Shown here piece by piece: positions 1 through 20,300 of a stretch of DNA of 32,000 bases. The stretch lies in NCBI GenBank assembly GCA_025839675.1, contig CP104013.1, positions 5,700,001-5,732,000 of the forward strand, written 5' to 3'. Position 1 is the first letter of the stretch, and every line of letters starts with the position of its first letter. Origin of the DNA: Candidatus Lokiarchaeum ossiferum. Lineage in GTDB: Archaea > Asgardarchaeota > Lokiarchaeia > Sigyniarchaeales > Promethearchaeaceae. The notes beneath the pieces were generated by a model, which had not been told where the DNA came from, did no database searches, and was given only the letters and a program-made list of their open reading frames with translations. Made by a program: the position numbers and the translations under genes.

Positions 1-55
1 TTATATTGTGTTATTTTCTTTTCTTGTTTTTTAATTTATTTCTCTATTTAATTCT

Positions 56-769
56 TTATCTATATCTACCTTGAAATTCATATATTTTATATGGTGATTT
101 TTGACCAAAATGCGATTTTACACCCTTTAAATAATTACAATAAGGAAATGGTGGAATTATTATCTTGGAGTTATTTTTTCTTTTCGCAGAAAGTAGATGA
201 AAAATATCTGAACCAATGCAAATGGTTGAGTTCTGATCAAACGTTGCGTGTTTTTTTCCTATTGATTCTAATCGTTTTGCTGTAATTGCAGGGCGACCAA
301 CGATGATCAATTGGGGTTTTGTCTTCAAACCTATTTTTTCAACTTTAATTAGTCCGAAATCAATTCCTATTCTTATCTTAAGGTCTGGAAATTTATGCTC
401 TTTTTTCAGAACAATTAATAATTGAGACATTTCTAAGGCAGCATTCAAGGCATTTTCACAAGCTAATTCATCTGGTTGATTTTTATCACAGAAACTTATC
501 ATTGCACCATCCCCTGTATATTTGTCAACAATTCCTTTCTTTTCATTCACAATATGAAAAACCATATGTAGAAATGGACTTACATATCTTATGAATTCAT
601 TCTCTTCTAACTTTGATGAATTAGCAATATCCAAAACCAAAATTGCTGCTTTTAGTGTTCTTCTTTCTCCAATGGCCATTTCATCAATATTTGGAAAATG
701 ATTACTATTCTTTTTACCTGGGTTCTTTCTTTTGTTTAAAAATTTATTTAAAACTTGTTTATCTACCAC
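56..769 (-). CDS. Stand-alone class III nucleotidyl cyclase (cyclase homology domain) protein
   Basis: 237-aa ORF with a GTG start at 769 and a GGGGG tract about 12-16 nt upstream; the first ATG is at codon 31. Cyclase homology domain landmarks appear in the canonical order. AAILVLDIANSS matches the first metal-Asp strand (cf. FxDIxGFT). DKYTGDGAMISF matches KxxGDGxM with the second metal Asp. KIRIGIDFGLIKVEKIG matches RIGIHxGxVxxGxIG. IIVGRPAITAKRLES matches GxxVNxAxRxES, with the canonical Asn replaced by Thr. No extra sensor, TM or effector domain is visible. Confidence 0.7.
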   Translation of the reverse strand: MVDKQVLNKFLNKRKNPGKKNSNHFPNIDEMAIGERRTLKAAILVLDIANSSKLEENEFIRYVSPFLHMVFHIVNEKKGIVDKYTGDGAMISFCDKNQPDELACENALNAALEMSQLLIVLKKEHKFPDLKIRIGIDFGLIKVEKIGLKTKPQLIIVGRPAITAKRLESIGKKHATFDQNSTICIGSDIFHLLSAKRKNNSKIIIPPFPYCNYLKGVKSHFGQKSPYKIYEFQGRYR

Positions 770-863
770 TATCGTCTTTCCCCCTATTCTTAAACTACTA
801 ATACATCACTGTATTTGCTTTTGAAATTTACTCTTTTATTGTCATGAGTAAAACTTTGATTTT

Positions 864-872
864 AAAAAAAAA
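864..872 (-). terminator. Oligo-T tract (T9 on the coding strand) immediately after the gajB-like stop codon
   Basis: The plus strand shows A9 at 864-872, directly abutting the TAG stop (873-875, minus strand). Oligo-T runs act as archaeal termination signals. This genome is full of homopolymers, so the call is weak. Confidence 0.25.
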
Positions 873-2582
873 CTATATTTGTATTAGGTAAATACATTTT
901 TTTGTTCGGGTTAGAGAAGTAAAACAGATATTATCTTCTTCTGATTTTAATCTGGTTTTTTTTTTTGACGGATTATAATCATAATAAAATACTATATCAA
1001 ATTCTAATCCTTTTCCTTTATGATGTGTCATAACTCGAATTTTATTGGAGTCGTGTGGCAAAATTTGGTCTATATTTATGGCAATTCGCAAATGATTAAG
1101 TAAACTGCTTAATAAAGCCCTGCTATCGTCAGATTCATATTTATTAAAAACAATAAAATTCTGTACCTCCACTGATATTTTTTTTTTAAACTCGGAAGAA
1201 AAAAAATTATCATCGTAATTGAAAATGAAATTAATCAATTTTATTATATTAGAAGTACGTTGAAAAATAAACTTATTTAAATAATCCTGATAATCATTGG
1301 GTAAATCTACAAGCAGTATGGGATTGTGGTTAAGATAAAATTGTAATGAAAAGCAAAATTTATCGAATTCATTAATTTGATCTTCACTAATATCTAATTC
1401 AGATATAGGTATTCCATATTTAATGAGTTCTTTTTTAATTTTCAATACAATTGAATTAGTCCTCGCAAAAATAACGATTGATTCTGCTTTTATTCCCTCC
1501 TTTGTCCAAGAAAGTATTTCATTCTTGATGAATTCTATTTTTTTTTGTAAATTATTTGGATTTATTTCTTTTTGTATAATTTTTGCATCATTTTTATTTC
1601 TGAAATCAACATTTTTAATTAATCCCATGGATAAAGTTTCATTTGTATACTCTATGATATTTTTAGGATTTCGAAAATTTACTTCAAGTTTCAAAAGATT
1701 CGCATTGGTTTTTCTAATAAATTTATCAAAAATTGAAGGAAGACTACCAATCCACTTGTAAATAGATTGATCTTCATCCCCCACAACCATAAGATTTTTT
1801 GTTTGTTGAGCTCTCCATAATAACAAAATGAAATTTAACCGGTAATAGGTGCAATCTTGAAATTCATCTACAAGAATAATTGGAAACTTGATATTCAATA
1901 TATAACGAATATTTTTATATTTTTTAATCATCCAAATTGCACATAACTCCATCAATTCAAATGGTAAAAGCCCATTTTTTATATAATATTTTAAAACATC
2001 TTTAAAATAGTGATATTCTGCTTCCCATGGACAATCTTTTGGACATTTTAGTTCATCTTCACATTTCTCATGAAATTTCCAAAATAGACCATTTTTTGTT
2101 GAAACATCCCCCATCGTAAATTTTTTGCATTTCTTCACAAATTCAGATAATATATTTGTTCTAAATTTCTTTAATTTATTTTGATCACCTTGAACCATTT
2201 TTTGAGAGGGTACAATTAATTCACTTATTTTTTGATTTACTTCTAAAAATTCATTAAATAATAAGTTGCCATGTTTGGATATTAAATAATAATAAAAAGC
2301 GTGAAAAGTTCCAATCCAAATTCTCGATTTAATTGTTTTTTCATCAAATTTTTCATTAATTTGATCTCTCATATCCATTGCCGCTTTGTTCGTGAAAGTC
2401 AAACACAGAATTTTTTGATTTATGTCTAAGTAATTATTTTGAAGCAAAAATTCAATCCTTTTAACTAAAGTATAAGTTTTACCACTTCCTGGTCCCGCTT
2501 TAATTACATATGTTCCAGAAGGTGATTCTATACATAAATTTTGTGATGGAACTTTGATAATAACATCTCCTAATCCTTGCAA
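873..2582 (-). CDS. gajB: UvrD/Rep/PcrA-type superfamily 1 helicase, GajB-like
   Basis: 569-aa ORF with SF1 motifs in order. Motif I is AGPGSGKTYTLVKR and motif Ia is CLTFTNKAAMDM. Motif II is ILVDEFQDCT and motif III is VVGDEDQSIYKWIG. Motif IV is NFRNPKNII and motif VI is VMTHHKGKGLEFDIVF. It overlaps the upstream OLD-family gene by 13 nt, which is the Gabija / class 2 OLD gene arrangement. Confidence 0.85.
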   Translation of the reverse strand: MQGLGDVIIKVPSQNLCIESPSGTYVIKAGPGSGKTYTLVKRIEFLLQNNYLDINQKILCLTFTNKAAMDMRDQINEKFDEKTIKSRIWIGTFHAFYYYLISKHGNLLFNEFLEVNQKISELIVPSQKMVQGDQNKLKKFRTNILSEFVKKCKKFTMGDVSTKNGLFWKFHEKCEDELKCPKDCPWEAEYHYFKDVLKYYIKNGLLPFELMELCAIWMIKKYKNIRYILNIKFPIILVDEFQDCTYYRLNFILLLWRAQQTKNLMVVGDEDQSIYKWIGSLPSIFDKFIRKTNANLLKLEVNFRNPKNIIEYTNETLSMGLIKNVDFRNKNDAKIIQKEINPNNLQKKIEFIKNEILSWTKEGIKAESIVIFARTNSIVLKIKKELIKYGIPISELDISEDQINEFDKFCFSLQFYLNHNPILLVDLPNDYQDYLNKFIFQRTSNIIKLINFIFNYDDNFFSSEFKKKISVEVQNFIVFNKYESDDSRALLSSLLNHLRIAINIDQILPHDSNKIRVMTHHKGKGLEFDIVFYYDYNPSKKKTRLKSEEDNICFTSLTRTKKCIYLIQI

Positions 2583-4360
2583 ATGAATTCCAGAATGGCT
2601 CTTATTTCTTCACGAATATCTTCTTTTACAATAATATTGCCAACAACAAAACACATATATTCGGTTTTATTTTTACTTAAAATGGAAATCAAGCCCTTTC
2701 TTAATAATTTGACTAACTCAATTTGATCTATTTTCTCATATTGATTAAAAATTTCTTCAAGCATTTCAAAACTATCAATCTGTTTATCAAATTTTTTGTT
2801 GTGGTATGTAATTATTTTTGAAATTATTTTGCTTACATTAGAGAATTGAGATTGATTTTCCGCAATATCTTTAATAATCTTGAAGAGGGATGGTATTGTA
2901 AGAGCTTTCCCAATAAGAGATTCAATTGCATTATCTATTTTAAAAACTTCCACTTTTTTGGATTTTAATCTTGCTTCAATTTCACTATTGTCACCTTTAT
3001 CATCATCAATGATCACTTTTATAGATTTTTCAAAAAAATTGTTTGCTTCTACGGCATTTTCAATTTCAGAGCAAGAACCGACATAACGAAGGGAAATACC
3101 TTTATGATTTAAATCATATCGTTCATCTTTCATAGAAAAATATTTAATATACCACCAATCTGTTTTTCCTTCAATAATAATAATTTTTCTCGCAAAAATT
3201 ATATCTGGGAATATTTGAAGAGTATTCAATATCCATTTTTTTAATTTCTTATCTTTGTATTGCTGAATTGATTTGGAATTTACGGTCGTCATATTGTTTA
3301 AACTTTTATGATAAAACAGATAATTCGATTCTTCTGTTGGAAAAGGAATATTTGATGAATGAGTGGATACAATTAATTGATAATTCTCCGAATCTTCCCC
3401 GATCAATTCTTGAATAACATTTCTCCAAAAAGAGATCAAATACCGTTGGCTATGGGGATGAAGATGGATTTCTGGCTCATCAATTAAAATTGAAAAAGAA
3501 TTACTATTCGATTTATATTCTGATTCTAAATATATTTGGAATAAAGTATTTATAAAAAAATTTTTCAACCCATCTCCAATTTCAGTTGGCTGAAATTCTT
3601 TTGATTCTTGTCTTAACAATATTTGAAAATTATAGAGCAATTTTTCCTCAGTAGATAATCCAAATTCCAAAGAAGGATCAAGAATGGCTAATCTTGTATC
3701 ATATTCAAATAAATCTCTTAATTTCTCTTTCAATTTATGATTGAACTCTTTTATTGAACCTCTTTTGTTCAAATTTAAGTTAATTTTCTCAATTATGGCA
3801 ATCAATTCATCTTTCATTGAAGAATCAAGAATTTTCTCTAAAATTTTAGTGAATATTCCTTTTCTATTTCTAAGATTGATTGTTGCTTTTACATCATTAG
3901 TTGAGCTTATAAGCATGAAATAATAATTTTCCAGTAATCTTTTGTAAACTGCGAAATTTTTTTCTTCCATTTCATCAATTATAACAAAAGGATTGATCTC
4001 AATTTCATCTTCGTGATTTTCCACTTTGATTTTTAGAATTAATTCAATATCTTGTGGGTTTGAAGAATCTAAATTTGAGAAATAAGCTTCAAAAGCAGCA
4101 ATTTCTTTAATATTGAAATTTTTAAAAGTTAACCATAATTCAATAGGCTTTTTTTTATCAATAAATTGCTCTAAATTAAAGAAACGATATCTTTCTTGCT
4201 GATTGGAAAAGAATTGCTCAATTAGTTGAAGTGAAAGAGTTTTTCCAATATTATTTTGACCTATTATATAATTCAGGGTATTAAATTTTATAGTGGCATC
4301 TTCAAAGCAAACAAAATTATTAATTTTTAATTGGTTAATTTGCATATTTACACTCTCCAT
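2570..4360 (-). CDS. gajA: OLD-family ABC-type ATPase with C-terminal TOPRIM nuclease domain, GajA-like
   Basis: 596-aa ORF. The N-terminus MQINQLKINNFVCF is typical of OLD/AAA_15-like proteins. Walker A is GQNNIGKTLS, Walker B plus the following His is ILIDEPEIHLHP, and the H-loop is LIVSTHSSNI. TOPRIM Glu lies in IIIIEGKTDWWY and the acidic DxD cluster in VIIDDDKGDNSE. The likely true start is the ATG at 4345 (GGAG 9-12 nt upstream) rather than 4360. Confidence 0.85.
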   Translation of the reverse strand: MESVNMQINQLKINNFVCFEDATIKFNTLNYIIGQNNIGKTLSLQLIEQFFSNQQERYRFFNLEQFIDKKKPIELWLTFKNFNIKEIAAFEAYFSNLDSSNPQDIELILKIKVENHEDEIEINPFVIIDEMEEKNFAVYKRLLENYYFMLISSTNDVKATINLRNRKGIFTKILEKILDSSMKDELIAIIEKINLNLNKRGSIKEFNHKLKEKLRDLFEYDTRLAILDPSLEFGLSTEEKLLYNFQILLRQESKEFQPTEIGDGLKNFFINTLFQIYLESEYKSNSNSFSILIDEPEIHLHPHSQRYLISFWRNVIQELIGEDSENYQLIVSTHSSNIPFPTEESNYLFYHKSLNNMTTVNSKSIQQYKDKKLKKWILNTLQIFPDIIFARKIIIIEGKTDWWYIKYFSMKDERYDLNHKGISLRYVGSCSEIENAVEANNFFEKSIKVIIDDDKGDNSEIEARLKSKKVEVFKIDNAIESLIGKALTIPSLFKIIKDIAENQSQFSNVSKIISKIITYHNKKFDKQIDSFEMLEEIFNQYEKIDQIELVKLLRKGLISILSKNKTEYMCFVVGNIIVKEDIREEIRAILEFICKD

Positions 4361-4367
4361 TTATGTA

Positions 4368-5426
4368 TTAAAATTTATAATCTGGAAGAAATTTATTCCA
4401 ACAATCGAAAAGCTGGTCAATATAATATTTCAACTTGCCATATTTCCGTAGATTAATGATTTTCTTAACATAGACCCTCTGAAAAATATTAATTTTATCT
4501 ACCACAAGTTGCTCATCGTCTTTGAATTTAGAAGAAATCTTGAAATGACCCTTTTCCCATGCTTCCTTAAATTTTACTTCCAAATCGCTCTCCATATTAG
4601 AAGGAATAACTCCAAAATCTGCATTTCTTGGCAAAAAGTACATCCAACCGAAATTAGGGTTTGCATTTTTACCATTTTTGGTCAATTTATTAAGGTTATA
4701 ATACGAGACGTGCAAATTTTTTACGAATAATCTCACCGTATTCCAATTTTTTGCATACATTTGATATTGAAACCAAAAACTATCAATTAAATTTGCTGTG
4801 GTAATAAAATGGGCTTCCAGTTTAGCAATTTTTAAGTTTGATAACTTGAATTCAAAAAGATTAGGTTTTAATTTCTTTTTTTCCCAAAATGTCTTTAAAG
4901 GGATTTCCAACTTATTTATCAATTCTTCATCAATTATTCTATCGGTATATCTAATTTCTTTATAGTATGTATCCATATTTAGATGCAGGAAATCTTCAAG
5001 CAAGTGATTGAGATTTTTAATTTTTTTTTTATCTTTCATTTCTTGGATTATAGGATGATCTAAAAATTTCTTTTCTAAGTTTCCCAATATCATTGAATCG
5101 TTATTTACCGCTTTTTCTTTGTTCTTCTGAAAAATGGGAACAATTTGAACTTTAGATATTGACCACCATTCATCTAAAAAGTGAAAAAGGTGCCCTTGAA
5201 CTCCTCCAAAATGACGGGTGATGCGATCTTTAAAATTTTTCGTGCTTCCAATATAAAGCATTTGTTCCTTTTCTTCTTGAGGAGGCTTTCCCCAAAATAT
5301 ATAAATTCCTCCTAATTTCTCTTCAGTTTTCTGAATTGGAAAATGTTCTCTAAGCTCCCTAAACATTTCTTGTAAAACATTGGTGTACACAAGTTCATTA
5401 TTTTTTATTTCATTTTTTTGATTCAT
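4368..5426 (-). CDS. GIY-YIG nuclease-domain protein with a large uncharacterised C-terminal region
   Basis: 352-aa ORF. The N-terminal segment GGIYIFWGKPPQEEKEQMLYIGSTKNFKDRITRHF resembles the UvrC/Cho-type GIY...YIG...R..H core. A downstream LEKKFLDHP is a candidate for the catalytic Glu. The remaining ~230 aa have no motif I recognise. The gap to gajA-like is 7 nt and to the upstream gene 15 nt. Confidence 0.6.
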   Translation of the reverse strand: MNQKNEIKNNELVYTNVLQEMFRELREHFPIQKTEEKLGGIYIFWGKPPQEEKEQMLYIGSTKNFKDRITRHFGGVQGHLFHFLDEWWSISKVQIVPIFQKNKEKAVNNDSMILGNLEKKFLDHPIIQEMKDKKKIKNLNHLLEDFLHLNMDTYYKEIRYTDRIIDEELINKLEIPLKTFWEKKKLKPNLFEFKLSNLKIAKLEAHFITTANLIDSFWFQYQMYAKNWNTVRLFVKNLHVSYYNLNKLTKNGKNANPNFGWMYFLPRNADFGVIPSNMESDLEVKFKEAWEKGHFKISSKFKDDEQLVVDKINIFQRVYVKKIINLRKYGKLKYYIDQLFDCWNKFLPDYKF

Positions 5427-5441
5427 AACTGGTTCATTCTC

Positions 5442-6542
5442 TTATTTCTTTCTTTCTATCCAATTGATCCAATACTGATATTGTTCTTTTATCATGAAAT
5501 TAAACCATTTTTTTGATTTCGCATGTTCTGGTTTTTTTAACATATCCCATAGATCTTTACTGTTTAAAGTTAATCCCTTCCAAAGCTTTCCGATCTTCCT
5601 TTCATCAAATGAAAGCCCAATAATTATGTCAACCATCCCAATGGTTTCTTTTCCAAATTTCTTCCAATCGGATTCCAGTTCTTTAATGGCAATTCTTTTA
5701 TGTTTGATTTGTATGGTGATTTTATTTTTTGCAGGGATTATTATTTCCTTTGTGTTTGTTAAATTAAGTTTTTTATCGCTTGAATTTGGATTATATACTA
5801 GTAAATCGATACATTGACGGGAACCTCCTCTCATTCCACTTACAATACAATCAAAATCGGAAAATAACTTAAATATCAATGTTTCAAACTCAATAGGTCC
5901 TAGATAATGAATTAATTGCTCTTCTACAGGAATACTGAAATCTTGGAAAATTTCCGGAAATAGTTTTTTTATTGCATATTTTATATTTAACCTATTGATA
6001 GGAGCAATTGTTTTATATGCAAATTCTCGGGATCCTGAGAGAGTGGCAAGTATTTCTGGTGCAAAAAGAACTTCTTTTTTTTGTAAATTCTCAATTTCTA
6101 TAAATTTAGGAAAATGTGTATCATCCCAGCAAGCATATTTTGATTTGGTTTGGGAAGATAACCAACCATTCCATTCATTTTTATTAATTCCTTCATCATG
6201 GAGTATAAAGATTGGACCTTTTAATTGATAAATATATATTGTTTTTGAAGTAGCGGTTATACAATAGGTTTGTTCATTATTTATTGTCTCCTGAAAATAC
6301 TTGATCTGATTCCATTGCATTGCTTTTCTTTTTTTACTTTCACTAGCAATTTTTTGATAAACAGTTGGAGATCTTTCTGATTCTGGTGTATATATCTCTT
6401 CAATGTTTATATTGCCAAAGAAGAATACAATAACTCCTTTTTTTAGTGGATTATTTCCAGATAGAAGCGGTTCAGCTAGCGAATTCTTTTTGCTGACCTT
6501 AATGAAGCGTAAATTAATCTCTTCCAAATTTTTCAAACTCAT
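5442..6542 (-). CDS. Uncharacterised protein with a C-terminal Mrr-like PD-(D/E)xK nuclease motif
   Basis: 366-aa ORF and first gene of the cluster, with a GAGG Shine-Dalgarno-like element 9-12 nt upstream of the ATG at 6542. The C-terminal segment is FETLIFKLFSDFDCIVSGMRGGSRQCIDLLVYNP...ITIQIKHK. It follows the Mrr_cat pattern (FE..l...l...G..v......D.GiDl....(n)..iQ.K). The N-terminal ~210 aa are unrecognised. Confidence 0.5.
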   Translation of the reverse strand: MSLKNLEEINLRFIKVSKKNSLAEPLLSGNNPLKKGVIVFFFGNINIEEIYTPESERSPTVYQKIASESKKRKAMQWNQIKYFQETINNEQTYCITATSKTIYIYQLKGPIFILHDEGINKNEWNGWLSSQTKSKYACWDDTHFPKFIEIENLQKKEVLFAPEILATLSGSREFAYKTIAPINRLNIKYAIKKLFPEIFQDFSIPVEEQLIHYLGPIEFETLIFKLFSDFDCIVSGMRGGSRQCIDLLVYNPNSSDKKLNLTNTKEIIIPAKNKITIQIKHKRIAIKELESDWKKFGKETIGMVDIIIGLSFDERKIGKLWKGLTLNSKDLWDMLKKPEHAKSKKWFNFMIKEQYQYWINWIERKK

Positions 6543-7035
6543 GATTTTGCCTCTTTATTGCTATATATTCATTATGATTAAGGACAATTTAAATATTCTA
6601 TTTTGAATTCGATTGATTTTTTAATTCTGTTTAAAAAAATAATTTTACCCCGTTTTAAAATATTATTTCATGTTTTTTTTGTAGATTTTTGTTTAGTATA
6701 AAAAGGAGTCAACTATCCATGATGGACTTTATACAATTTCACTCAGGAAGATCCAGAAAGAAAGTGATGGAAAATCAGTAATATTTAGATTTGGTGAATT
6801 ATGTGTGAGAATTGTACAGATAGGTGGTTCACTGATTATGAAAAAGTATATAACGCAGAATTTATATGTGATAAGTAGATTTGAACTTGTTGATTGTCAA
6901 TTAATTTTGTAAAATCATAGAAATTAAACATTCTTAATCAAAAGATAAAATTTTAATTAGATATGATGAAATTCAATCAAAAATGAGCAAATGATAGTAA
7001 TTTAAAAGTAAATTCAAAGGAAATGAATGTGAAAT

Positions 7036-8682
7036 ATGAACGTTAGTATTATACATAATAATGAAGGAAAAGTGAAACCTTGGATTAAATTTTTAAGCGG
7101 TACGGTATCTGCTATTGCAGCATTAAATTTATCCTCCACTATTGCACGTGTAGCAAAAAAGAAGAGATTTGGGATAATTTATGTGATGTTTTCAATTCAT
7201 CCCAAATGCAACTCAATATATGTTGGGCAGACCGCTCAACCAGATAATTATGCAAGATTCTCAGATCATATCAATGACGCAAAAAGAAAGGGTTCCCCTG
7301 AATATGATTACAAATTAAGTCGGGCAATTAGAAAATATGGTGAATCTACTTGGAGAATACTGACAGTTGATAAATATCTGGAATACTTGAAAGCTAATGG
7401 AACACCCCATATCGTCATAAATAAACAGCTTTTAGATAAAAAAAAAGTAATTTTTAGAGCTGACAACAAAGAAACTCTATCATTATTGGAGATCCTTTGG
7501 ATTGAAGAATTCAACAGTTATCATGATGGATATAATTCAACTTTAGGAGGAGAAGGTAAAAGATTAATTGAAGGTTTTTCTATAAGTGAAATTAATCATT
7601 ATATCGATCTGCTAGAGAGAAAACATATGAAGATGCAAATTGTTCCACTCTCAACATCACCCAAAGAGTTAACCAAAGCTGAAAATCCATTTCATGAAAT
7701 GTCTTATTCCCAATTCAGTTTGAAATTGGCTTATAGCAATTTTCCTTCTGATATTTTGCAAAGGATAGCAGACTTAGAAATGTGGAGCCGTTTTTACAAC
7801 AATAAGAAGAAGCAAATCAGTCTAGCCAATATTATTGTCGTTGAAAAAATTTTGGGGATGGATCATTTTCGTTCTTTTGATTACAATCGCAAAAATTTAG
7901 ATCAAAATTTAACTTTGGATGAAATACGTGATGAATTTAAATCTAAATTAGATATTACTCCTATTCTCGAAACATATGGCATCGATCCATCTTGGATTCC
8001 TTCCATTAAACCAAGTTGCAGTATTTCATTAGGGAGAATTGGTGATATTCGAAATTCAATATTGATAGATCTATTTGAAAATAATCGGCAATTTTCAAAA
8101 TCTTATTTGCTTGAGAAATATAAATCAACTCGTCATATTATAACATCTTCTCCTATACAAAGAGGATTAAAACGAATTTATAATAATTCAATTGCTATAA
8201 TATGTAATTGGGACGAGATATCACTTGAATCTGATGAAGAACTAACCTTTCGGGAAATAGCTTATATCAAATTCCGTTTTCCATCTATTTCGCATCAATT
8301 AATGACAGAGGGTAAAAAATTGAAAAGATTCTTAGGAGAAGATTTAAATAATGCTGGAAGTGGTAGGAGAGAATTACAAAATTACCTAAAAATATCTCGT
8401 AACCATTTTACTTACTTTGATGAAATCTTTTCTCCTGAAATTTCAATCAAATTCAATAGCAAAATGTGGGAAAACTATAAACGATTAGTTTTCATTGAAA
8501 ATATCTTGATTAGGACTCCCTTTATCTCCCCGAAAGAATTAGCTTATCTCTATTTTGGATCAGATTTTTCTGAAAGTGAGAGAAAAAATATCTCGAGAAA
8601 ACTGAATGCTATTAAGAAGATGGCCAGAAAAAATTTGAGACTTTCACAACTATATTTGAACAAGGAAATTAGTCTTATTTAA
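7036..8682 (+). CDS. Free-standing GIY-YIG homing-endonuclease-like protein (I-TevI/Seg-like N-terminal domain) with a long C-terminal extension
   Basis: 548-aa ORF. GIIYVMFSIHPKCNSIYVGQT...RFSDHINDAKR...KLSRAIRKYGESTW...LEILWIEEFNSYHDGYNSTLGGEG reproduces the GIY / YIG / R / H / E / N landmarks of phage-type GIY-YIG homing endonucleases. About 370 aa of unassigned C-terminal sequence follow. The start codon is uncertain: 45 aa precede the GIY motif. Confidence 0.7.
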   Translation: MNVSIIHNNEGKVKPWIKFLSGTVSAIAALNLSSTIARVAKKKRFGIIYVMFSIHPKCNSIYVGQTAQPDNYARFSDHINDAKRKGSPEYDYKLSRAIRKYGESTWRILTVDKYLEYLKANGTPHIVINKQLLDKKKVIFRADNKETLSLLEILWIEEFNSYHDGYNSTLGGEGKRLIEGFSISEINHYIDLLERKHMKMQIVPLSTSPKELTKAENPFHEMSYSQFSLKLAYSNFPSDILQRIADLEMWSRFYNNKKKQISLANIIVVEKILGMDHFRSFDYNRKNLDQNLTLDEIRDEFKSKLDITPILETYGIDPSWIPSIKPSCSISLGRIGDIRNSILIDLFENNRQFSKSYLLEKYKSTRHIITSSPIQRGLKRIYNNSIAIICNWDEISLESDEELTFREIAYIKFRFPSISHQLMTEGKKLKRFLGEDLNNAGSGRRELQNYLKISRNHFTYFDEIFSPEISIKFNSKMWENYKRLVFIENILIRTPFISPKELAYLYFGSDFSESERKNISRKLNAIKKMARKNLRLSQLYLNKEISLI

Positions 8683-9133
8683 TCAGTAAATCATATTTTT
8701 TTTTATTAATTCCATAATTGGAAATGAAAAATTCAATTTTACTTGTATTTAAATCAGATTTTTCACTGAGAATTAGAAGTAGTATAATCGTAATTATTAC
8801 TGTTAACCCTCCTATATTCTTAATAAATAAGGGTGAATCTTTTTGGATTTTGAACTTAGCGCAAGTGTTCTCAACAACGCCATAAAATTAAATTTATGGT
8901 ATTTTTTCATTGAATCTTAATATTTGATTATTATTAGCAATACAAAAAGTCTAATTTTTAACTGATTTTATAAAATATCCTTTCCTACATTCCGAAATGT
9001 CAGAATATGATCACTCGGAAACCAAAAGTTTTCCGAACCCACCACTCCAATGTCGCATTTCTTTCGCTTTTCACAATAATACTGGAAAATGGAAAATAAA
9101 GTCTTAAAAATCCCCAAAGTCAGAACTTGAATT

Positions 9134-9166
9134 AGTATAAATTTTTGCGTGGGAACGTTTTGCCAC
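9134..9166 (+). promoter_or_regulatory. Candidate promoter (TATA-like box) plus an overlapping imperfect palindrome upstream of the FAD oxidase gene
   Basis: AGTATAAATT lies at 9134-9143. GTGGGAACGTTTTGCCAC lies at 9149-9166; its outer GTGG/CCAC and inner AA/TT positions pair as an inverted repeat. GAGGT at 9186-9190 lies 9 nt upstream of the ATG at 9200. Confidence 0.3.
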
Positions 9167-10709: not shown

Positions 10710-12119
10710 ATGCAACGATTAAAAGAATTACGTAATGATATTTACAAATGTATCCACTGTAAAGCCTGTCGATTTGCCTATTCGGGTGAACCTGATCGCG
10801 AAGGAATTGGAGAGCATACTGGAGTACAAGGAGATAAAACCTTTTACGAAGGGATGGTTCAAGCCTGTCCTGCAGGAATTGAATTCGGATGGGAAGCCTT
10901 CTGGAATGCGGGTAAAATTTGGATTGCACGTTCCGTATTAGAAGGGGACTTGGATTTGAAAGAACATGGGCAAGAGATTGCTGATGTGGCTTTCCCATGT
11001 ATCACCTGTGGAATGTGTGGGGCTCAATGTGAGAACAATGTGCGCACCGTAGATGTTATTGAAGCTCTTCGGGCTGCAGTGATTGAAGCCGGAACTAAAC
11101 CTTTACCTGTTCATGGAATTATGGCAAAGAACAGTGAGGTTAAGAACAATCCATATGGGGCAGTGAAAGACGAACGCACCAAATGGGCAAAGGATGCGGG
11201 AGTTTTCGATTCTATTATTGATAAAAAAACCAAAATTGGCTACTATGTTGGATGTACTGCCAGCTATCGCCAAACGAATATTGCAGTCGCCACGGTGAAA
11301 CTGCTTCAAAAAATTGGGTATGATATCACCATTTTGGATGAAGAATCCTGTTGTGGATCCCCCTTCTTCCGAACGGGATTGATCGATGAAGGCAAACGCA
11401 CTATGGAAAATAACTTGAAAATTTTCAAGGATTTTGAAATCTTAATCTTCAGTTGTGCCGGATGCTATCGAACCTTTACCATTGACTATCCTAAATGGAC
11501 TGGCAAGGCTAACACCTTCAAAACAATTCATGCGATGGAATTGATTTCTGAATTGGTTCGTCAAGAAAAAATCAAGTTCAAGGAACATCCAGAATTGACG
11601 GGCAAAACCGTGACCTATCATGATCCATGCCACACCGGGCGACATTATGGCTCCTGGTTCAAGGAAAGATTGATTGAAGAATCTACGAATTTAATGATGG
11701 ATATGCGCGCCGCGGGAAAAATCGAACATGAATGGTTTGAAGTCCCACGACGCATCATCAAAGCCCTCCCCGGAGTGACCTTTAATGAAATGTATCGAAT
11801 CAAGATGGATTCCTTCTGTTGTGGGGCCGGTGGTGGTGTGCGAGGGCAATATCCTGAATTCAGTATTAAAACCGCCCACTTACGGATGGATGAAGGGGAT
11901 GCGGTCGGTGCTGATATCATGTTAACCGAATGTCCATTCTGCTGGCGAAACCTCGATGATGCCAATAATCAATACAAGCATGGGAAGAAGGTTATGACCA
12001 TTTTGGAAATGATTTCCACTTATGATTTAATTGAATCGGCGGAAAAAATCGATGTCGAAGAAGCCCTGCGAGAAAATCATGCCGAACAACACTTCCCTTC
12101 CAACAAAAAGAAGAAGTAA
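10710..12119 (+). CDS. Fe-S cluster / double CCG-domain protein, GlcF / HdrD / LutA-like
   Basis: 469-aa ORF with AGGAG 12-16 nt upstream. Two ferredoxin-type cysteine motifs are present (CIHCKACRF...CPAG and CITCGMCGAQCE). Two CCG motifs are also present (ESCCGSPFF and DSFCCGAGGG), with the associated Cys patterns FSCAGCYR, HDPCH and ECPFC. Confidence 0.85.
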   Translation: MQRLKELRNDIYKCIHCKACRFAYSGEPDREGIGEHTGVQGDKTFYEGMVQACPAGIEFGWEAFWNAGKIWIARSVLEGDLDLKEHGQEIADVAFPCITCGMCGAQCENNVRTVDVIEALRAAVIEAGTKPLPVHGIMAKNSEVKNNPYGAVKDERTKWAKDAGVFDSIIDKKTKIGYYVGCTASYRQTNIAVATVKLLQKIGYDITILDEESCCGSPFFRTGLIDEGKRTMENNLKIFKDFEILIFSCAGCYRTFTIDYPKWTGKANTFKTIHAMELISELVRQEKIKFKEHPELTGKTVTYHDPCHTGRHYGSWFKERLIEESTNLMMDMRAAGKIEHEWFEVPRRIIKALPGVTFNEMYRIKMDSFCCGAGGGVRGQYPEFSIKTAHLRMDEGDAVGADIMLTECPFCWRNLDDANNQYKHGKKVMTILEMISTYDLIESAEKIDVEEALRENHAEQHFPSNKKKK

Positions 12120-12269
12120 CTCAAATTGTAATCTTTTTATTTTTTTACTCCATTTTTATTTCTTGAAAATCCTTTTACGATGCACCTCAATTCTTCAAAT
12201 TGTTTTCAGTTTCTCCAATTTGTTAAAATTAATGATGCGAACTATATTTCTAAATTGATTTATTTGATT

Positions 12270-12890
12270 TCAATTATCATTTTCATCAAAAACGCTTTTG
12301 CTATTGTTTTCTTGAAATAGTGTATTAATTTCTGATAAATCATTTTCGGTTAATGAAGTAGGGACGAATTGTTTGATATAGTCTAAATATCCTGTTTTTC
12401 CATTTTCCACTGTCCAAAAAGATGCAGAATCATAAATACATGCCAAACATAAATTTAATGTTGAAAATCCTCTACAATCAGACATTTGGATAAGTTCGGG
12501 GATAATTTTTAAGATGTTCTCAAATAGATCTAATTCTATCGGTTCCAAGCGAGTAGTGGAATTTATATCCGAAGAATGCTGTAATATATTGGCATTCCAT
12601 TGTTTTTGACTATATAACAAACATCCTAATGTATTCAATACATTATAATCATTTCCTAATGGGTATTGGTCTGCCCATGCCATGATTTGATGTTCTAAAT
12701 TAAATAGAATATATTCATACTTCCTTTTTGCGTATGCCATTTTAGAAGACGAAGGCAATTTGGGGGAGAATTTTAGAGTTTGGGCAAGAATTTCTCTCTT
12801 CTTTGGGGTCCCTTTGCTTTTTTTTATAATTTTATTTCGGGCATAGCGGACAAGATGTTTTTGACTATGCTTTGGGTTTTGCTTTGGCAT
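12270..12890 (-). CDS. Hypothetical protein (very basic N-terminal 50 aa; no recognisable domain)
   Basis: 206-aa ORF ending in TGA. There are no antisense competitors of similar length. The true start could be Met51 (MAYAKRKYEY). Confidence 0.5.
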   Translation of the reverse strand: MPKQNPKHSQKHLVRYARNKIIKKSKGTPKKREILAQTLKFSPKLPSSSKMAYAKRKYEYILFNLEHQIMAWADQYPLGNDYNVLNTLGCLLYSQKQWNANILQHSSDINSTTRLEPIELDLFENILKIIPELIQMSDCRGFSTLNLCLACIYDSASFWTVENGKTGYLDYIKQFVPTSLTENDLSEINTLFQENNSKSVFDENDN

Positions 12891-13064
12891 AATTGATTTT
12901 TAAATTTAAGAATATTAAATTATTTATTATTAGAGCCCTAATATCTCAAAGAGAACTAATTTTCTTCTAACAACCAAGTAGCAGAGATTTTTGGGAAATA
13001 AGAAAAAGAATTTGGAATGAAATCTCATTGAAAAACGTTTTTTGTAAAATCATCATCAGATTTT

Positions 13065-13472
13065 TTAAAACAAATAGGACTTTACATGTAAGTGGGGGAT
13101 TTTTGGTAGGATTTTTTCTGTAGTGTGAAATGTGGCTTTCTTTTGCAGAGCGATAGCAATTGCAATACAATCATTGTAAGATAATTTGGCTCGATGCTGA
13201 CATTTCAACCTTCCTGCTTGAACAATTAACTCATGAGATAAATCCACAAAGTTGATATCAAATGCTCGATAAAATGATTGCAACACAGATTCGGCATAAT
13301 TGTGCCCTTTTAACACACACAAGTGTTTAAACACTTCAAGAAGGATTTCTTTAGCAATGAATGTGTTAGCGGGATTTGTTTTGATTAGCTCCATTAATAA
13401 ACTGAACTCTTTTGGAGTGTTTTGTAAGAAATAAAGAGAAAGGACGCCTGCATCCAAACAATGAAAGACCAT
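13065..13472 (-). CDS. vapC: PIN-domain toxin, VapC-like
   Basis: 135-aa ORF. An N-terminal acidic residue sits in MVFHCLDAGVLSLYF (cf. LDTSVL). Late acidic/small residues sit in LSYNDCIAIAIALQKKATFHT, typical of PIN. Its start is 1 nt downstream of the stop of the AbrB-type gene. Confidence 0.7.
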   Translation of the reverse strand: MVFHCLDAGVLSLYFLQNTPKEFSLLMELIKTNPANTFIAKEILLEVFKHLCVLKGHNYAESVLQSFYRAFDINFVDLSHELIVQAGRLKCQHRAKLSYNDCIAIAIALQKKATFHTTEKILPKIPHLHVKSYLF

Positions 13473-13473
13473 C

Positions 13474-13713
13474 TTAGAACTCCAAGTCTAATTCTTCCCG
13501 CTTAGATTTTAAGTAAATTTTTTTAAATTCTTCTACTGTTGCCGATTGTTTTTTCAATTCCTGGAGTGGGATTATAGGTGTGATTCGCATTGTCCCATCT
13601 TCATTTTCATTAATTATAACATGATCTCCATCATTAAAGTGAAATTTCTTGCGTAGACTAGCTGGAATCGAGATCATTCCCTTATTGGTTATTTTCACGG
13701 TTTTTTGAATCAT
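13474..13713 (-). CDS. vapB: AbrB/SpoVT/MazE-fold antitoxin, VapB-like
   Basis: 79-aa ORF. ITNKGMISIPASLRKKFHFNDGDHVIINENEDGTMRITP is the swapped-hairpin AbrB-type DNA-binding pattern. It sits immediately upstream of the PIN gene. Confidence 0.75.
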   Translation of the reverse strand: MIQKTVKITNKGMISIPASLRKKFHFNDGDHVIINENEDGTMRITPIIPLQELKKQSATVEEFKKIYLKSKREELDLEF

Positions 13714-13880
13714 TATTATTACTAAGAATATTGGGAAAAACTAAGTATATGAATTTTATCTCAGTTTTTTATTTTTCTATCTTGACTATTCTGGAAAAAA
13801 GTTACCATTGATTGGGCAGAATTGATTTACGTGTGAACAAGTTTTGATGAAGTTTGTCTATCGGTGAGATCACCAAATTT

Positions 13881-14128
13881 ATGAGTGGGTTCTGCTTCCA
13901 AGTCTTTTGTGCTGCTTTTTTATCTGGGGCAATTCGGCAAACGGCAAATAATCTGCATAATCAGAAACAAAACGCGTCTCCCCAAAACCAAAATACTGAA
14001 CCAATTAGTGAGACATCATCAAATCAAAATTTTTCAGGGCAAGCTAAAAAACTTTGTTCTGGATGTGGAGAATTGATTGAGATCCTACTAGTAAGATATG
14101 TGCTTATTGTGGGGCTCAAATTAAATAG
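13881..14128 (+). pseudogene. Small zinc-ribbon protein gene interrupted by a 1-nt frameshift
   Basis: Frame 0 (ATG 13881) reads ...AKKLCSGCGELIE through 14081. The frame starting at 14081 reads DPTSKICAYCGAQIK then TAG (14126-14128). Joined, they give CxxC-x13-CxxC, a complete zinc-ribbon knuckle pair. Neither frame alone contains both halves. Confidence 0.35.
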
Positions 14129-14348
14129 ACACTGCTCATTTTCTACAAGTATTTTTCCTAATTTTTTTTCTATGTCCTAATTTACAATAGAAATGTAATA
14201 CAAAAAATCTGCGTGAGTAATTTTGTGAAATAAATTACACCGCCCCAAAAATACTAACAAAAAAAATTACTTATTGGGAATTCGGGTGCACTGAATGAAG
14301 TCAAGAGACCTGCGAAAAGACTTAATTAATAGACATAAAAAAATAGAA

Positions 14349-17300
14349 TTAAAGATCTGGAATCATATTGATTAAGGTGACTATTATTTCCCCATTTTCA
14401 GTTAAATTTAAGTGTTCATCAATCAATTCCAGTTGTTGTAACCTCAATATGGATGGAATTACAACCAAAATTTTTGTTTTATTTTCTAAGTCTTTTTGAT
14501 TTTTAATTCCTTCTTCTATTGTTTTTAAAACCAATCGTTCTTCCTTTGAAAGTTGTTGGATAAAAGGTTTAAATTTTTCAGCTAAGGCTTTTGTCCGTGG
14601 ATTAACAGCAAACACAACTCCTTCCGCTCTTAACTCGTGGATTGAATTAAAAGTAGTGATCTCTTTTTTACCGTACGCGGCTAAGGCTATAATCATGTCC
14701 CGAACTTTAAAGCTGCAATCAAAATTCACTTTAGCTTCTTTAACAATCAATGATTGCACTGATTTCTTTCCATAAGACTTTAAAAATCCGGGCACTTTGG
14801 ATAAGATCAGATTATGGGGATATAGTAAATCCACATGCAGCATTTCTTCCACAATTTTCATAATGGGTTCTCTTGGAATTTCTTCCCCGATCCAATTATT
14901 AAAAATCTCCTTATGGGTATCTTCAAGTTTTTGATTGAATTTCTGAACGCTCTTTTTCATAGATTCACCTGGAGATTTTAGAAGTAAAACGGCTGTCCGA
15001 ATAAATTCCCCATCTTTTACCACAATTTTAAATTGCTGGTATGAAAGTTCTTCCAATCCTTGATTCCCATCCATGGGTGTTGAGTTACTTTCTAAATTCA
15101 TTTCTGGCTTCAAATTTGATCCAATTTCCTTTCCAAAAGAAGAAATTGCGGACAAAAATCCACTAATTAAATTGGCATCTATTGGAATATTTGAAAAGCT
15201 TTGCGAAAATAAAGATAATCCATTTTGTTTATGTATTATCAACATATATTGGATATTTTCAATATCTGCAAATTGTCGATGAATTTCAATCATTTGAAGT
15301 CGACGTTTGTTTCGTTTCGGAACATAAATTCCTCGATATGTTACCATACTTAAAACTATAAGACTAACCAAACTAATAGAAATAGGGAGAACATTATCCC
15401 AAATTATGATCCAAGTGTTGATAACTCTCACATTGTATAAATTATCTTGATTAGCGTTAAGGTTTGTAGTTTCATAAATACTGCTCGCCTCAAATATCGG
15501 TACTATTGTGAAACTACCTACTGAATCTACTACTATTGTTGTAGTTGCAATTCCTTCAGCGTTAGTGCTAGCAGTCGTATCAGAAATGGATTCTCCAATA
15601 GAATTTCTTAAAATAAATCGAATCGTTTGACCTTGAAGTTCTTTTCCATTTTCATCAATAAGTTTGACCGAAAATGTAAAATCTCCCGAAAAATCCTCTT
15701 TAACTTTAGTGTCCAATAGAATTAAGGTCGTTTTTAATCTTGGTAATATCGAATAGCTAATTACTTTTTGAAAACTTGATATTTTAGAAGTTCCCGAAAA
15801 GCTAATGCTAATATTCATCCAATCCCCACCATCATCAAATGGAATTTCATAGGAAATGTAGATCGATGAATTAATGATTATGGTATCGGTTAAATAGATC
15901 GAAGAACCTGCAAAATAGATGATTATCGTTGTTTCCAGACCATTCAATGTCTCGACACTAGATGAATTTGTGAATAATGCTTGGATGTTGTAATCGGTTA
16001 TTGCCCCATGTCTAAGATCCTCTTGGATATTCACAATTTCGAAATTAACATCCCACTTATCCCAAATATCAATTGTATAGACTATCATGAAACTTTGAAT
16101 TGTCGAGTTTCCTTGGAAATTTAAGGTAATATTTAGCCAATCGCCACAATCTTGAGGTATTTCATAATCTATGACAATAATACCTGAAAAACCGAACCAA
16201 GCTTGCCGAATAATGGGATCCATTCCTTCATATTCATAGATTATGAAAATTGATTCAGTATAAAATGAAAAGTTACATGAAGAATCTAAATATTTGGCTA
16301 AAATGTTTAAATCAAATTCTTCTCCAATTCGGTACATCGATTTCAAATTTGTAATTTCAAATGAAGTTTCCCATTTCATAAGGATTACTTGATCAACTAT
16401 ACTTGCACTTGCATAGCCATTTATCGCAGTTCCTGCATAATCAATAAAAAAAGTAATATTTTGATACCCATCAGGAATGGCTGGGGTAAGATATTCATAC
16501 ACTCCATCTTCATTAACATAAATTTGTTGAATAAAAACTAAGTTTTGATTATCCCCATCTACCCAAGCAGCTACAGTTAAATAAATGTCAATATAGTCTT
16601 CATATGAACTAATTGACAAATTTCCCGATAATATTACCTGATATCCTACCCTCAGCATAGAGTCTGCATCTAATTCTATGCTTAAGTTGACTGAATTTTT
16701 TCCCTTTATGAAATTGTTTAAGTCTGCATAGGATGAATTTTGAATATATGGAGTTCCGAGATAAATAACATGAACATCCAGTGTTGTTTCAGCATATTCA
16801 CTTGATATCATCTGCGAATATGAAATCATACCAAATCCATCAGTTGTTTTAAAAATTTGGAGGGATTCGAATCCATCAAAGTTCAAGATAATTTGTATTT
16901 CTGCATCGAAAATCGGGGAACTATTTAATATATATGATAAATTAACAACTAAATCCATTATTTTTCCAATTTGGAGTGATTCTGTGAGTAGGATGTTTAT
17001 TTGAGACTCCTTTTTCTCCAATATTTGGAAATTTGATTGAATCCAAGATGCATTTTCACAATTTATCAGATTTGCTGTTATTTCTAGTATATATATGCCT
17101 GGTTCTAAATGAAATCCATCTTCGGTAAAATCAATTGAAGAAGCATACACTCCTGAAAGCAAATTTGTCAAGTTTCCATAAGCAAGCATTTCAAAACTTT
17201 CATTTTGTATTTTCCACGATAAATCCCCCCCACTTAATGGCAATGGGCTTTCTATTTGGTTTATATTGTCAAATGTTGCATAAATATCTACTTTCGATTC

Positions 17301-20300
17301 TTCGTATAAAGGTTCCAAGGTATTACTCACTAATTGAGTTGCAATAGGGAGAATCGCCGTTGAGAATTCGATGTAAGTACTATTGTATCCATCTAAAGAA
17401 ATGGTAAGAGATAGGGTATAATTAAAAGTATCCATTCGAGATGTAGTATTTAAGCCATAGGCATTAAGATTTATATAATAAAGACCTCTATCTGATTCCT
17501 TTTGAGTTTGCTGGTAGATATCTACACCATAAAAAATATTATCTGTCCCATTAAATTTCCCCGTTAGTTGTCCATTTGATAATGGTGCTCCATTGGAAGA
17601 ATTGGTCACATTAACTTCAATTGTACTCTTTTGATTGTCATCAACCCTCGGCAAATTATTAGAATGGATCAATCCTGTATATATATCAGTATTAAATGCC
17701 CCAGAAATAATATTCATACTCATAGGATATCCAGATATTTTAATTATTGAATATAATTTAACTTCGTCATAAAATGGATATGTTACTTCAATAAATATAT
17801 CATAATTTCCAATAGGGACAGATCTCGTTTTGAATTCAAGGGTATAATTCCCTTCAGATCCAAAACTGGAATTTTCGTAAACTTCTCCTATCAAGTATTG
17901 ATTTGGAGGCCAATCAATCCCCCACAAATTTTCAGAATCTGACCAAAATATATTCAAATAATTCTCAGCCCCCGAAATTGGAAGTCCTTTTTCATGAGAT
18001 ATGTTTAAATAGAAATTGCCTACATCTCCAGAATTCAATTCGTTCATTTTTTGAGTAATATTGGCATTTAAGGAACGCCATACTTCAAAAGTACCTCTGG
18101 CAATCCCCAATTGTGTTGTTTGACCACCTTCTGTATTGTTCCATATTGCATAAATTGAATATTCTCCGACTCCAGTATCGTTAATAATCCAAGATGAGTC
18201 TGTTAAATTGCCTGATATATGTGGAAAGTATGCGGGAAATTGAGGGATTATTTCATTTGATGCATCAAATATTGTGATGTTATAATTTCCTTCAACTTCT
18301 TCAATATTTGATTGGTTTACCTGAAGAATTGTAGAATTTTGATCATAAAATCTTGTGTTTTCGGGGGCATCATCATGAATGAGAAATACATCGGCCAAAC
18401 AATTTTTTGAAGAATATGTAAGAATCCACGTCCCGTTGATATAATTAAAATCATTCAATTTTTCTGTTGCCTCAGCTATAGTCAAATTTTGACTATTTGG
18501 GTTGTTTTGACTACCATTTGTTGAAAATCCCTTGGCATATTCTGGTGTTACCCCTGTCGGATCAACACCTCCCGTCCAAAGCCAATCTGTTGAATTTTCT
18601 CCCAATCCATCATAAGCAGGTAAATCCACTACCGTAAAGTTGTAACCTCTGGGATTGAAATTCTCATACTCATGATTGATTAGTTGATCGAAAGTATTTG
18701 CATTATCGTACGAGACATTCCAAAGAATCCGTTCAGGTGCAATTTCTGAAAAACTCGGAATGATGTAGGTTGCCGATGCGTTATTTGATTGATTCCTTGA
18801 AATAATTAGGTTATCTTCAAACTCAAGAAAACTTGATGCATATAATGGGTTAGTGATGTTAAAAGCCATGGTAAGGTTGTTATTTTCTAGTGGAACTTTA
18901 GAATCAATGCCAAATTCTGTTTGGTTTATCCAACTTGTGCCATTCCACCGTTGCAATCCTACCTTTGTTAAATTTGGTTGATTATAAATGACCTCCAAAA
19001 AAATATCATCAAAGGATACCGAAAAATCCCAAGTGTGAGGTCTCTCCCCTCCCAAATTTAAAATCCCTAAATGAAATATAAATTGGTCAGAATTTAGGAT
19101 TGATTTGTGGCGAGTTGATAAATTATATTGTAAATTTTTTGATTCTTGCGGTGCTGTAAATATATCATCAATGAATCCTAATGGGACAAATATTTCACTC
19201 CCAGAATTATTAGCAAATACTGAAAATAAATACCAATTTCGCATTTGAAAGGTATTATCAAAATTAATCTCGCATTCAAATTCTAAATTTCCAATATCAT
19301 ATTGATCTTCCTCAATTGCTCTTATAAAAACCCCGCCAAACGACACTTGAACTTCATCACTTGTATCATTGATATTTTCAAACCAAATCCCAAAATCTAA
19401 AGTATGATTCGATTTTTGAGAATCAATAAGCTCAGTAATATCAAAAATTCTGACTACATAATCATGACCTAGCGGTTCTCCAATATTTGCTAGTGAATTT
19501 TCTAAGGTCGTTGCAGTGGCATTTGGATAACTTACCCCATTCGTGTCTGTTCTTCCATCAATATATTGACCATCAATTCTGGCTATTATACTCAAATTGT
19601 CTGAAGCTTCGAAACTTAATGCTTCTACTTTCCAATATGTGATAAACTCATATTTTTTAGGGATAAAATCTGGAGCAGTTAGTTCTGGAAAAACAACATT
19701 CCAGCCTATCGAGGGGTTACCTAAAGTAAGTAAACTACTTCCCGCATGTATATATGCTTGCAATGATTCGTCCACATCATTATATTCAAGTCTTCGATTT
19801 GAAGCTTTCTTGTCTCCTCCATATGGATTATCAAAGTCCCTTTCCCAATTACTTCCTGATATTCCAATCAACTCATCACCCCAACTTGGTTCCTCATTAA
19901 ATTGATTATATAATGCAAATTCTGAATTACCTGTTGATATAAGTTCCGTTTCATGAATTTCTGCTTCTGGATCTGGTTTTGTGATATCTTCTTGTGACCA
20001 CACTGCCAAGGCGTCTCTTGGTATATATGGATTGATAACTCCATTATCAGCTGTACTAATAATTCCGAGCTCATTTGAATAATCACCACGGAATCCCCAT
20101 GAATCGTCAGAAACATATTGAGATGCAGAAAAATCCCATTCTCTTTCCATGGATGATGCCTCTATACTCCCATCTCGAGTGATGTTCCATTCTTGAGCAA
20201 TTGCGTCAATATTCATAGTGTGTGAATTTATATTCCAATTTTCGGGAATTCCAATCGTGAAGTTTTCTGTGGAAATGTCTAAACGAGATTTCTCAGCTGT

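Follow-up and report, generated by a model that had tools for sequence, protein, structure and literature searches.

Gene Content of the Locus

A 32,000-nt stretch of the Candidatus Lokiarchaeum ossiferum B35 genome (contig CP104013.1, positions 5,700,001–5,732,000), hereafter called the window, carries near its left end a tight array of five minus-strand genes, which includes a pair resembling the Gabija defence genes gajA and gajB. In a first-pass annotation made from the sequence alone, this array was proposed to be a single defence unit of new composition, namely a Gabija-like core extended by two upstream nuclease genes and a downstream nucleotide cyclase gene. The six-frame list of open reading frames (ORFs) reproduced the five genes exactly (Table 1), as well as their spacing, which is, in the 5' to 3' direction of the array, 15 nt, 7 nt, an overlap of 13 nt between gajA and gajB, and 103 nt. 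These ORFs are not chance ones, because they are long and intact at a GC content of 26–30%. The spacer of about 490 bp noted upstream of the first gene was measured, and a run of nine T residues (T9) directly after the gajB stop codon was read in the sequence. The domain assignments proposed for the five products (Mrr-like, GIY-YIG, gajA-like, gajB-like and class III cyclase) all agreed with profile, motif and structure matches. Note that the gajA start given by NCBI and by one gene call is the second ATG (position 4345), 15 nt downstream of the first, which shortens the protein to 591 aa and widens the gap after the 352-aa gene to 22 nt; this is probably the true start codon.

Table 1. Genes and other features of the array and its immediate flanks (window coordinates).
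Feature	Position	Strand	Remarks
366-aa protein, NEF87_004854	5442..6542	−	ATG start
352-aa protein, NEF87_004853	4368..5426	−	ATG start
gajA, 596-aa ORF, NEF87_004852	2570..4360	−	ATG start
gajB, 569 aa	873..2582	−	TTG start
pycC (candidate cyclase gene), 237 aa	56..769	−	GTG start
T9 tract	864..872	−	immediately 3' of the gajB stop codon; candidate archaeal oligo-T intrinsic terminator
AT-rich divergent intergenic spacer, 493 bp	6543..7035		between the 366-aa gene and the 548-aa gene
548-aa GIY-YIG homing-endonuclease homologue	7036..8682	+	phrog_7168 9.7e-12, phrog_314 4.4e-9
pycTM (candidate effector gene, 176 aa), last 34 nt	1..34	+	remainder off-window, L001 9044-9574

The Gabija Pair

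The gajA product matched the PADLOC GajA profile (5.6e-37) and the Pfam domains AAA_15 (6.1e-25), AAA_21 (6.5e-10) and OLD-like_TOPRIM (1.5e-8). Its Walker A motif (GQNNIGKT), Walker B motif (LIDEPE) and H-loop were aligned to those of the OLD nuclease 6p74, and it is thus predicted to be an OLD-family (class 2) ABC-type ATPase with a C-terminal TOPRIM nuclease domain. A phmmer search with this protein gave no direct match to the solved GajA structures and matched 6p74; its relatives encoded on plasmids are about 23% identical to it. The gajB product was matched by PADLOC GajB (2.6e-52) and by the Pfam families UvrD-helicase (1.9e-46) and UvrD_C (5.6e-18), and in the PDB by the superfamily 1 helicases UvrD and PcrA (about 1e-27). 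The gene follows immediately after gajA in the same orientation, and its start overlaps the gajA stop codon. Judging from domains, order and overlap, the pair is best read as a canonical two-gene Gabija system whose genes would be translationally coupled.

In the published mechanism, DNA is cut by a complex of the ATPase–TOPRIM nuclease GajA with the UvrD helicase GajB once infection perturbs nucleotide pools or DNA ends (PMC10781630). A 2026 preprint on strain B35 (10.64898/2026.02.13.705702) lists Gabija, "a two-protein system", in a cluster with Pycsar, reports that almost all defence proteins of the strain were found in its proteome, and states that the sister strain B36 has neither Gabija nor Pycsar. 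The two genes upstream of gajA are not mentioned in it. Since this clustering is reported there, the Gabija–Pycsar neighbourhood is already published, and the core finding adds little to what is known of B35.

The Cyclase and Its Partner

The product of the last gene of the array was matched by 12 PycC profiles, the best being PADLOC PycC (3e-20), and by Pfam Guanylate_cyc above the cut-off (1.1e-7); a comparison with the PDB led to the class III cyclases 3r5g and 7r65. The 176-aa ORF that ends at the left edge of the window is convergent with this gene, with 21 nt between the two stop codons. It was matched by PADLOC PycTM (2.2e-21) and, below the cut-off of 27.2 bits, by Pfam PycTM (1.2e-4, 22.9 bits). 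Pycsar consists of the pyrimidine cyclase PycC and the effector PycTM (PMC11224242, PMC9117128), and the window cyclase is accordingly assigned, from its profile matches and its neighbour, as a predicted PycC forming half of a Pycsar pair outside Gabija. It is placed outside any Gabija-centred unit because PycTM adjoins it and because the T9 tract and the 103-nt gap stand between it and gajB; the first-pass annotation had itself cautioned that the T9 tract might uncouple the cyclase gene, and this caution was borne out. Being convergent, pycC and pycTM need separate promoters. Upon infection, PycC would make a cyclic pyrimidine nucleotide, cCMP or cUMP, that would activate the membrane effector PycTM, so that the infection would be aborted.

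Two small transmembrane proteins (221 and 159 aa) without family matches are encoded upstream of pycTM on the same strand. A second Pycsar system has been reported for B35, and no second cyclase was found in the search for it within the 19 kb of the contig examined.

The 366-aa Protein

The first gene of the array encodes a protein that gave no match in Pfam (E ≤ 0.1), PADLOC, NCBIfam or PHROGs, and a word-indexed homologue search returned the protein itself only. Exhaustive HMMER searching of 1.84 billion representatives revealed 67 distant relatives of 300–380 aa, the best at 3e-19 and 37% identity; they are mostly archaeal or metagenomic. In an alignment of 38 of these relatives (A1), P162, T178, G239, D246 and K280 were invariant, and E220 and Q278 were near-invariant (at least 90% of the 38). 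The series E220...D246...Q278-x-K280 corresponds to a PD-(D/E)xK nuclease signature of the Mrr type, as predicted from this conservation. The Pfam Mrr_cat model was reached by 6 of the 38 relatives (best 1.1e-5), the window protein itself not being among them. Modeling with AlphaFold 2 (AF2) on A1 led to a model with a predicted local distance difference test score (pLDDT) of 88.9 and a predicted template modeling score (pTM) of 0.85, and a structure search with this model in BFVD gave a "Restriction endonuclease" (E 1.1e-3, probability 1.0) and a "type IV Mrr domain" (probability 0.97). The Mrr-like C-terminus is thus supported indirectly, by the conserved motif, by the Mrr_cat matches of the relatives and by the structure matches. 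The A1 profile found no match among PDB sequences. A tblastn search of phages and plasmids with the 366-aa, 352-aa and P0022 proteins gave no match, and scans of viral contigs found nothing for the 366-aa or the 352-aa protein.

The YTH and ASCH domains both belong to the PUA-like reader superfamily. The N-terminal alpha/beta domain of the 366-aa protein weakly matched a YTH domain in the PDB (E about 0.3) and an ASCH protein in BFVD (E 0.11), and it is possibly, and tentatively, a PUA-like reader. The combination of a PUA-type sensor with a PD-(D/E)xK nuclease is well established among modification-dependent restriction enzymes (PMC6765204, PMC7641849). We infer that the protein is a candidate stand-alone type IV-like nuclease, the most likely action of which would be modification-dependent cleavage of DNA.

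The 352-aa Protein and the 548-aa Neighbour

The second gene encodes a protein in which the Pfam GIY-YIG family (PF01541) was found at residues 39–98 (1.2e-6; 29.1 bits against a cut-off of 22.6). The GIY, YIG, Arg and His positions are visible, and the alignment does not reach the distal Glu/Asn. Two further matches, to PADLOC PDC-S14 (3.4e-6, about 40 residues) and to phrog_12629, were weak and confined to the motif. No homologue was found in a word-indexed search of 5.8 billion proteins (self-match only) or among phages, plasmids, viral contigs and the PDB. The C-terminal region of about 250 aa has neither a detectable relative nor a predictable fold, and a single-sequence AF2 model of the whole protein was unusable (pLDDT 32). 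By its sequence the protein is thus a true orphan with a predicted GIY-YIG nuclease motif, and it is a second single-gene nuclease candidate upstream of gajA.

Across the 493-bp spacer, at the right-hand end of the low-GC island, lies the divergent gene of another GIY-YIG protein, which in addition to the profiles in Table 1 matched phrog_5123, "homing endonuclease with GIY-YIG motif" (9.2e-5), and weakly PADLOC HEase. The 352-aa and 548-aa proteins were considered as paralogues, and this was rejected, as they show no similarity to each other.

Genomic Neighbourhoods of the 366-aa Family

The genomic context of the 366-aa family was examined in 19 loci, 3 of them in reference genomes (Bathyarchaeales and Methanophagales metagenome-assembled genomes) and 16 in metagenomes. 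When all ORFs of these loci were compared with the window proteins using phmmer, no GajA-like neighbour and no relative of the 352-aa protein was found, and a single UvrD-like gene was revealed. Approximately nine loci extend 1.5 kb or more downstream of the family member, and no GajA-like gene lies in that stretch in any of them. ORF maps and a Pfam scan indicated that the neighbourhoods are heterogeneous and in some cases defence-related, with HsdM in L019, an Mrr_cat gene in one locus (L015), an HD-domain protein in another case (L012/13) and housekeeping-type genes elsewhere. The family behaves like a gene that stands alone and at times turns up in a defence island.

The UvrD-like gene belongs to locus L019 (metagenome contig Ga0154761_134, 1-5109). 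This locus contains the N-terminus of HsdM, a divergent UvrD-like helicase and a member of the 366-aa family that is frameshifted. The next gene, in the orientation of this member, encodes a protein of 559 aa whose C-terminus carries a T5orf172/MUG113 domain of the GIY-YIG superfamily.

In two further metagenome loci, which are related to each other (L006 1741-2646 and L020 2076-2906), a protein of the AP_endonuc_2 family (xylose-isomerase-like TIM barrel) is encoded 15 nt after the family member. This is another tight pairing of the family, with a different partner.

Transcription

Oligo-T tracts terminate archaeal transcription. The only run of six or more T residues at the junctions of the array is the T9 tract after gajB; none was found at the 366-aa/352-aa or the 352-aa/gajA junction. 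A scan for TATA-like elements (background density 0.27 per 100 nt) revealed TTTAAATT in the 493-bp spacer, 51 nt upstream of the ATG of the 366-aa gene, and no element upstream of the 352-aa gene. A second element, TTATAAAT, precedes the start of the 591-aa gajA by 35 nt (window 4361-4395, minus strand), and a Shine–Dalgarno-like GGAGAG was found 7 nt upstream of the same start. These two sequences hint at an internal gajA promoter, as well as at the true start codon. A scan for sigma-70 promoters and rho-independent terminators was discarded as unsuited to archaea; it gave fewer matches than shuffled sequences.

Transcriptomes of B35 are public (SRX27494461-66, cited in 10.64898/2026.07.02.735847). 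Five contigs (L022, L023, L024, L026 and L027) from the runs SRR32148620, SRR32148622 and SRR32148623 match the genome at 100% identity and cover window positions 1–6551 and about 490 nt off-window, jointly crossing every internal junction of the array, that between gajB and pycC included. Their span begins with L027 (SRR32148620), 9 nt before the ATG of the 366-aa gene, and reaches up to 7 nt from the start codon of PycTM. The 548-aa gene and a heliorhodopsin gene further along the window were not fully assembled in those runs. The contigs look transcript-derived, because they end at the outer borders of two convergent units and because the assembly is gene-selective; if they are, their ends would mark where the transcripts begin and end.

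The suspicion of the first-pass annotation that at least the first four genes share a transcript fits the tight gaps, the lack of a T-tract between these genes and the contigs across their junctions. Co-transcription of the four genes is plausible and their co-expression likely, while an additional promoter of gajAB is possible. The 493-bp spacer presumably holds the promoters of both the four-gene array and the divergent 548-aa gene. The four genes would probably be read from one promoter in this spacer, with a possible extra initiation before gajA, and transcription would probably stop at the T9 tract. This tract and the 103-nt gap argue against the inclusion of pycC in the four-gene transcript, although the contigs, which are not strand-resolved, cross that junction.

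The Defence Island

The best-supported view of the surroundings is that window positions 1 to about 9,080 belong to a low-GC defence island specific to strain B35 and form its right-hand end. The GC content is 26–30% within the island and 43% in the metabolic genes next to it (FAD-binding, CCG/Fe-S; position 9149 onwards). The genomic contig carrying the island (Logan SRR22273277_1, 26,990 bp) ends at about position 9077 of the window, where the GC content steps from about 27% to about 43%. The coincidence of the contig end with this step and the lack of Gabija and Pycsar in B36 suggest that the island edge is an insertion junction or that the population is heterogeneous there. A repeat search for island borders and att sites gave AT-rich chance matches only, and scans of the window revealed no Rfam family and no tRNA. 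Off-window, the island contains a nucleotidyltransferase-type gene, a gene of a DUF4365 protein and those of the two small transmembrane proteins. Within the array, the GC content at third codon positions (GC3) is 0.20–0.21 in gajAB versus 0.23–0.29 in the two upstream genes, which hints at separate origins of the two pairs.

One System or Several

All these results make it probable, though by no means certain, that the region is a mosaic island in which a canonical Gabija system, a Pycsar pair and two independent candidate nucleases adjoin, and not one five-gene system. The independent modules would be packed head to tail at the right end of the island, and a common transcript would reflect island compaction, perhaps co-regulation, and not an obligate multi-protein machine. 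A single unit of new composition, whether of five genes or of four, was not upheld: the cyclase is assigned to Pycsar, the relatives of the 366-aa protein lack GajA-like neighbours in all 19 loci, and the 352-aa protein is an orphan, so that the co-occurrence and kept gene order expected in other genomes did not appear. The first-pass annotation had held that its unit would dissolve if the additional genes never neighboured gajAB-like pairs elsewhere or mapped to independent named systems, and this is largely what was found, because the 366-aa family shows no linkage with gajA elsewhere and the cyclase maps to Pycsar. What stands of the proposal is that, in a single genome, two uncharacterised nuclease genes share a probable transcription unit with gajAB.

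Several points weigh against this reading of the region as a mosaic. The context sample is limited to 19 loci, many of them short. The 352-aa protein has no detectable homologue whose neighbourhood could speak for its independence. The gaps of 15 nt and 7 or 22 nt without terminator signals mean that the upstream genes are very probably expressed with gajAB, which would be expected of an integrated system too. The SRR3214862x contigs, which are not strand-resolved, are presumed to be transcript-derived. Locus L019 in part resembles the window, since it unites the Mrr-type family, the GIY-YIG superfamily and UvrD, without GajA and as a single case. The N-terminal matches of the 366-aa protein are weak, and known defence systems have been described as gaining extra essential modules (PMC13069673).

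The proximity of the two upstream genes could also mean that the 366-aa and 352-aa proteins make up their own two-gene nuclease module (a reader-nuclease and a second nuclease) abutting Gabija. The 15-nt gap without a promoter-like element, GC3 values that are closer to each other than to those of gajAB, and the same-strand T5orf172 protein after the family member in L019 would fit such a module. We regard it as unlikely, since a downstream neighbour of the GIY-YIG type occurs in only 1 of the approximately 9 informative loci and resembles the 352-aa protein in the motif only, and other members precede unrelated genes (AP_endonuc_2 in L006 and L020) or stand alone.

A larger unit, a four-gene Gabija variant, would have the Mrr-like and GIY-YIG proteins as accessory sensors or effector nucleases, co-transcribed with GajAB and dependent on them. 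The common strand and the gaps of 15 and 7 or 22 nt agree with it, as do the lack of a T-tract before the end of gajB, the seemingly transcript-derived contigs across the 366-aa/352-aa/gajA junctions, the missing TATA-like element before the 352-aa gene and the above-mentioned acquisition of essential modules by other defence systems. This variant is nevertheless quite unlikely: in addition to the lack of a GajA-like neighbour in the 19 loci and of any homologue of the 352-aa protein, the canonical motifs of GajA and GajB are complete and the two should suffice by themselves, the GC3 of the two gene pairs differs, a TATA-like element and GGAGAG precede gajA, and the published annotation counts two proteins. 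The functional coupling that it implies is just as doubtful; for example, modified viral DNA could be recognised and then handed to GajAB, or the nucleases could be licensed by GajAB. It is very unlikely that the two upstream genes serve no defence and are selfish or decaying mobile-element cargo (for example, nucleases of the homing-endonuclease type that hitch-hiked into the island). In favour of such cargo, a bona fide GIY-YIG homing-endonuclease homologue lies directly across the spacer, the 352-aa protein lacks homologues, which is common for selfish genes that evolve fast, and the island is strain-variable with a genomic contig breaking at its edge. Against it, both ORFs are uninterrupted over a considerable length, although stop codons arise often at the local GC content of 29%; the catalytic residues of the 366-aa family are invariant even between distant lineages, and its predicted fold is a confident one; both genes are in probably expressed contigs; and the 352-aa protein bears no similarity to the neighbouring homing endonuclease.

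Under the preferred reading, as a mosaic of separate modules, what is new at the locus is a compact, unnamed nuclease family with a putative reader and an Mrr-type core, absent as a family from Pfam and PADLOC, and an orphan GIY-YIG gene wedged between an Mrr-type nuclease gene and gajA. Also new is the indication of a probable joint expression of the four genes, which poses a concrete question of two genes versus four, and the immune repertoire of L. ossiferum B35 is open to direct testing. If the coupling were real, the locus would represent a new multi-nuclease subtype of Gabija; if not, it would be a clean example of operon-like packing in defence islands that mimics a multi-gene system.

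Other Genes of the Contig and the Window

Off-window in the defence island (contig L021), a 740-aa AriAB/OLD-like ATPase is encoded at 11077-13299 on the plus strand (PADLOC AriAB 1e-26, Old 3.6e-21). It is followed 20 nt later on the same strand by the gene of a 583-aa Schlafen AlbA_2 protein (13320-15071; Pfam 2e-16). The pair is absent from the list of B35 systems in the preprint and may be an uncalled two-gene system.

At window positions 13065-13472 on the minus strand, a PIN-domain protein is encoded (Pfam 1.1e-7), with an adjacent upstream gene of 79 aa from the MazE_antitoxin family; together they look like a VapBC-like toxin–antitoxin pair. Outside the island, the minus strand of the window contains the heliorhodopsin gene (22557-23396, Pfam 9.5e-81) and the genes of a 2,076-aa Big_1-domain protein (14349-20579) and a 1,087-aa NosD/beta-helix protein (24582-27845).

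Comparison with Known Defence Systems

A comparison with Gabija indicated that both window proteins have the full domain sets, that the order gajA–gajB is the same and that the reading frames overlap; the PADLOC-based annotation of strain B35 already calls the locus Gabija. However, the window pair is very divergent and its host is an Asgard archaeon. In addition, two nuclease genes lie just upstream, probably on the same transcript, and no Gabija variant has been described with such partners; in type II Gabija, a MazF-like protein takes the place of GajA (PMC13069673).

The type IV enzymes used for comparison combine a PUA-superfamily sensor with a PD-(D/E)xK or HNH nuclease (PMC6765204, PMC7641849, PMC7897488). 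Like these enzymes and Mrr, the 366-aa family consists of single polypeptides of 300–380 aa with a C-terminal nuclease and a D...QxK motif, and its members occur as solitary genes, sometimes in defence contexts; there is no adjacent methyltransferase. In contrast to them, the window protein reaches no Pfam or PADLOC model, its N-terminal domain is only weakly YTH/ASCH-like (E 0.1–0.3), and the family is unnamed and rare.

The 352-aa protein shares with the GIY-YIG nucleases (PF01541) the GIY...YIG...R...H core, above the Pfam threshold. It is similar in size to the profiles of the PADLOC candidate PDC-S14 (301–320 positions), but only about 40 residues around the motif align with them.

As in Pycsar, where the gene next to the cyclase encodes an effector with a TM or TIR domain, a class III cyclase of the PycC type adjoins a transmembrane effector of the PycTM type, and Pycsar is among the systems reported in the B35 preprint, from a PADLOC-based annotation. 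The two window genes are convergent, whereas Pycsar genes usually form a co-directional operon, an arrangement that is an organisational habit and not a strict criterion.

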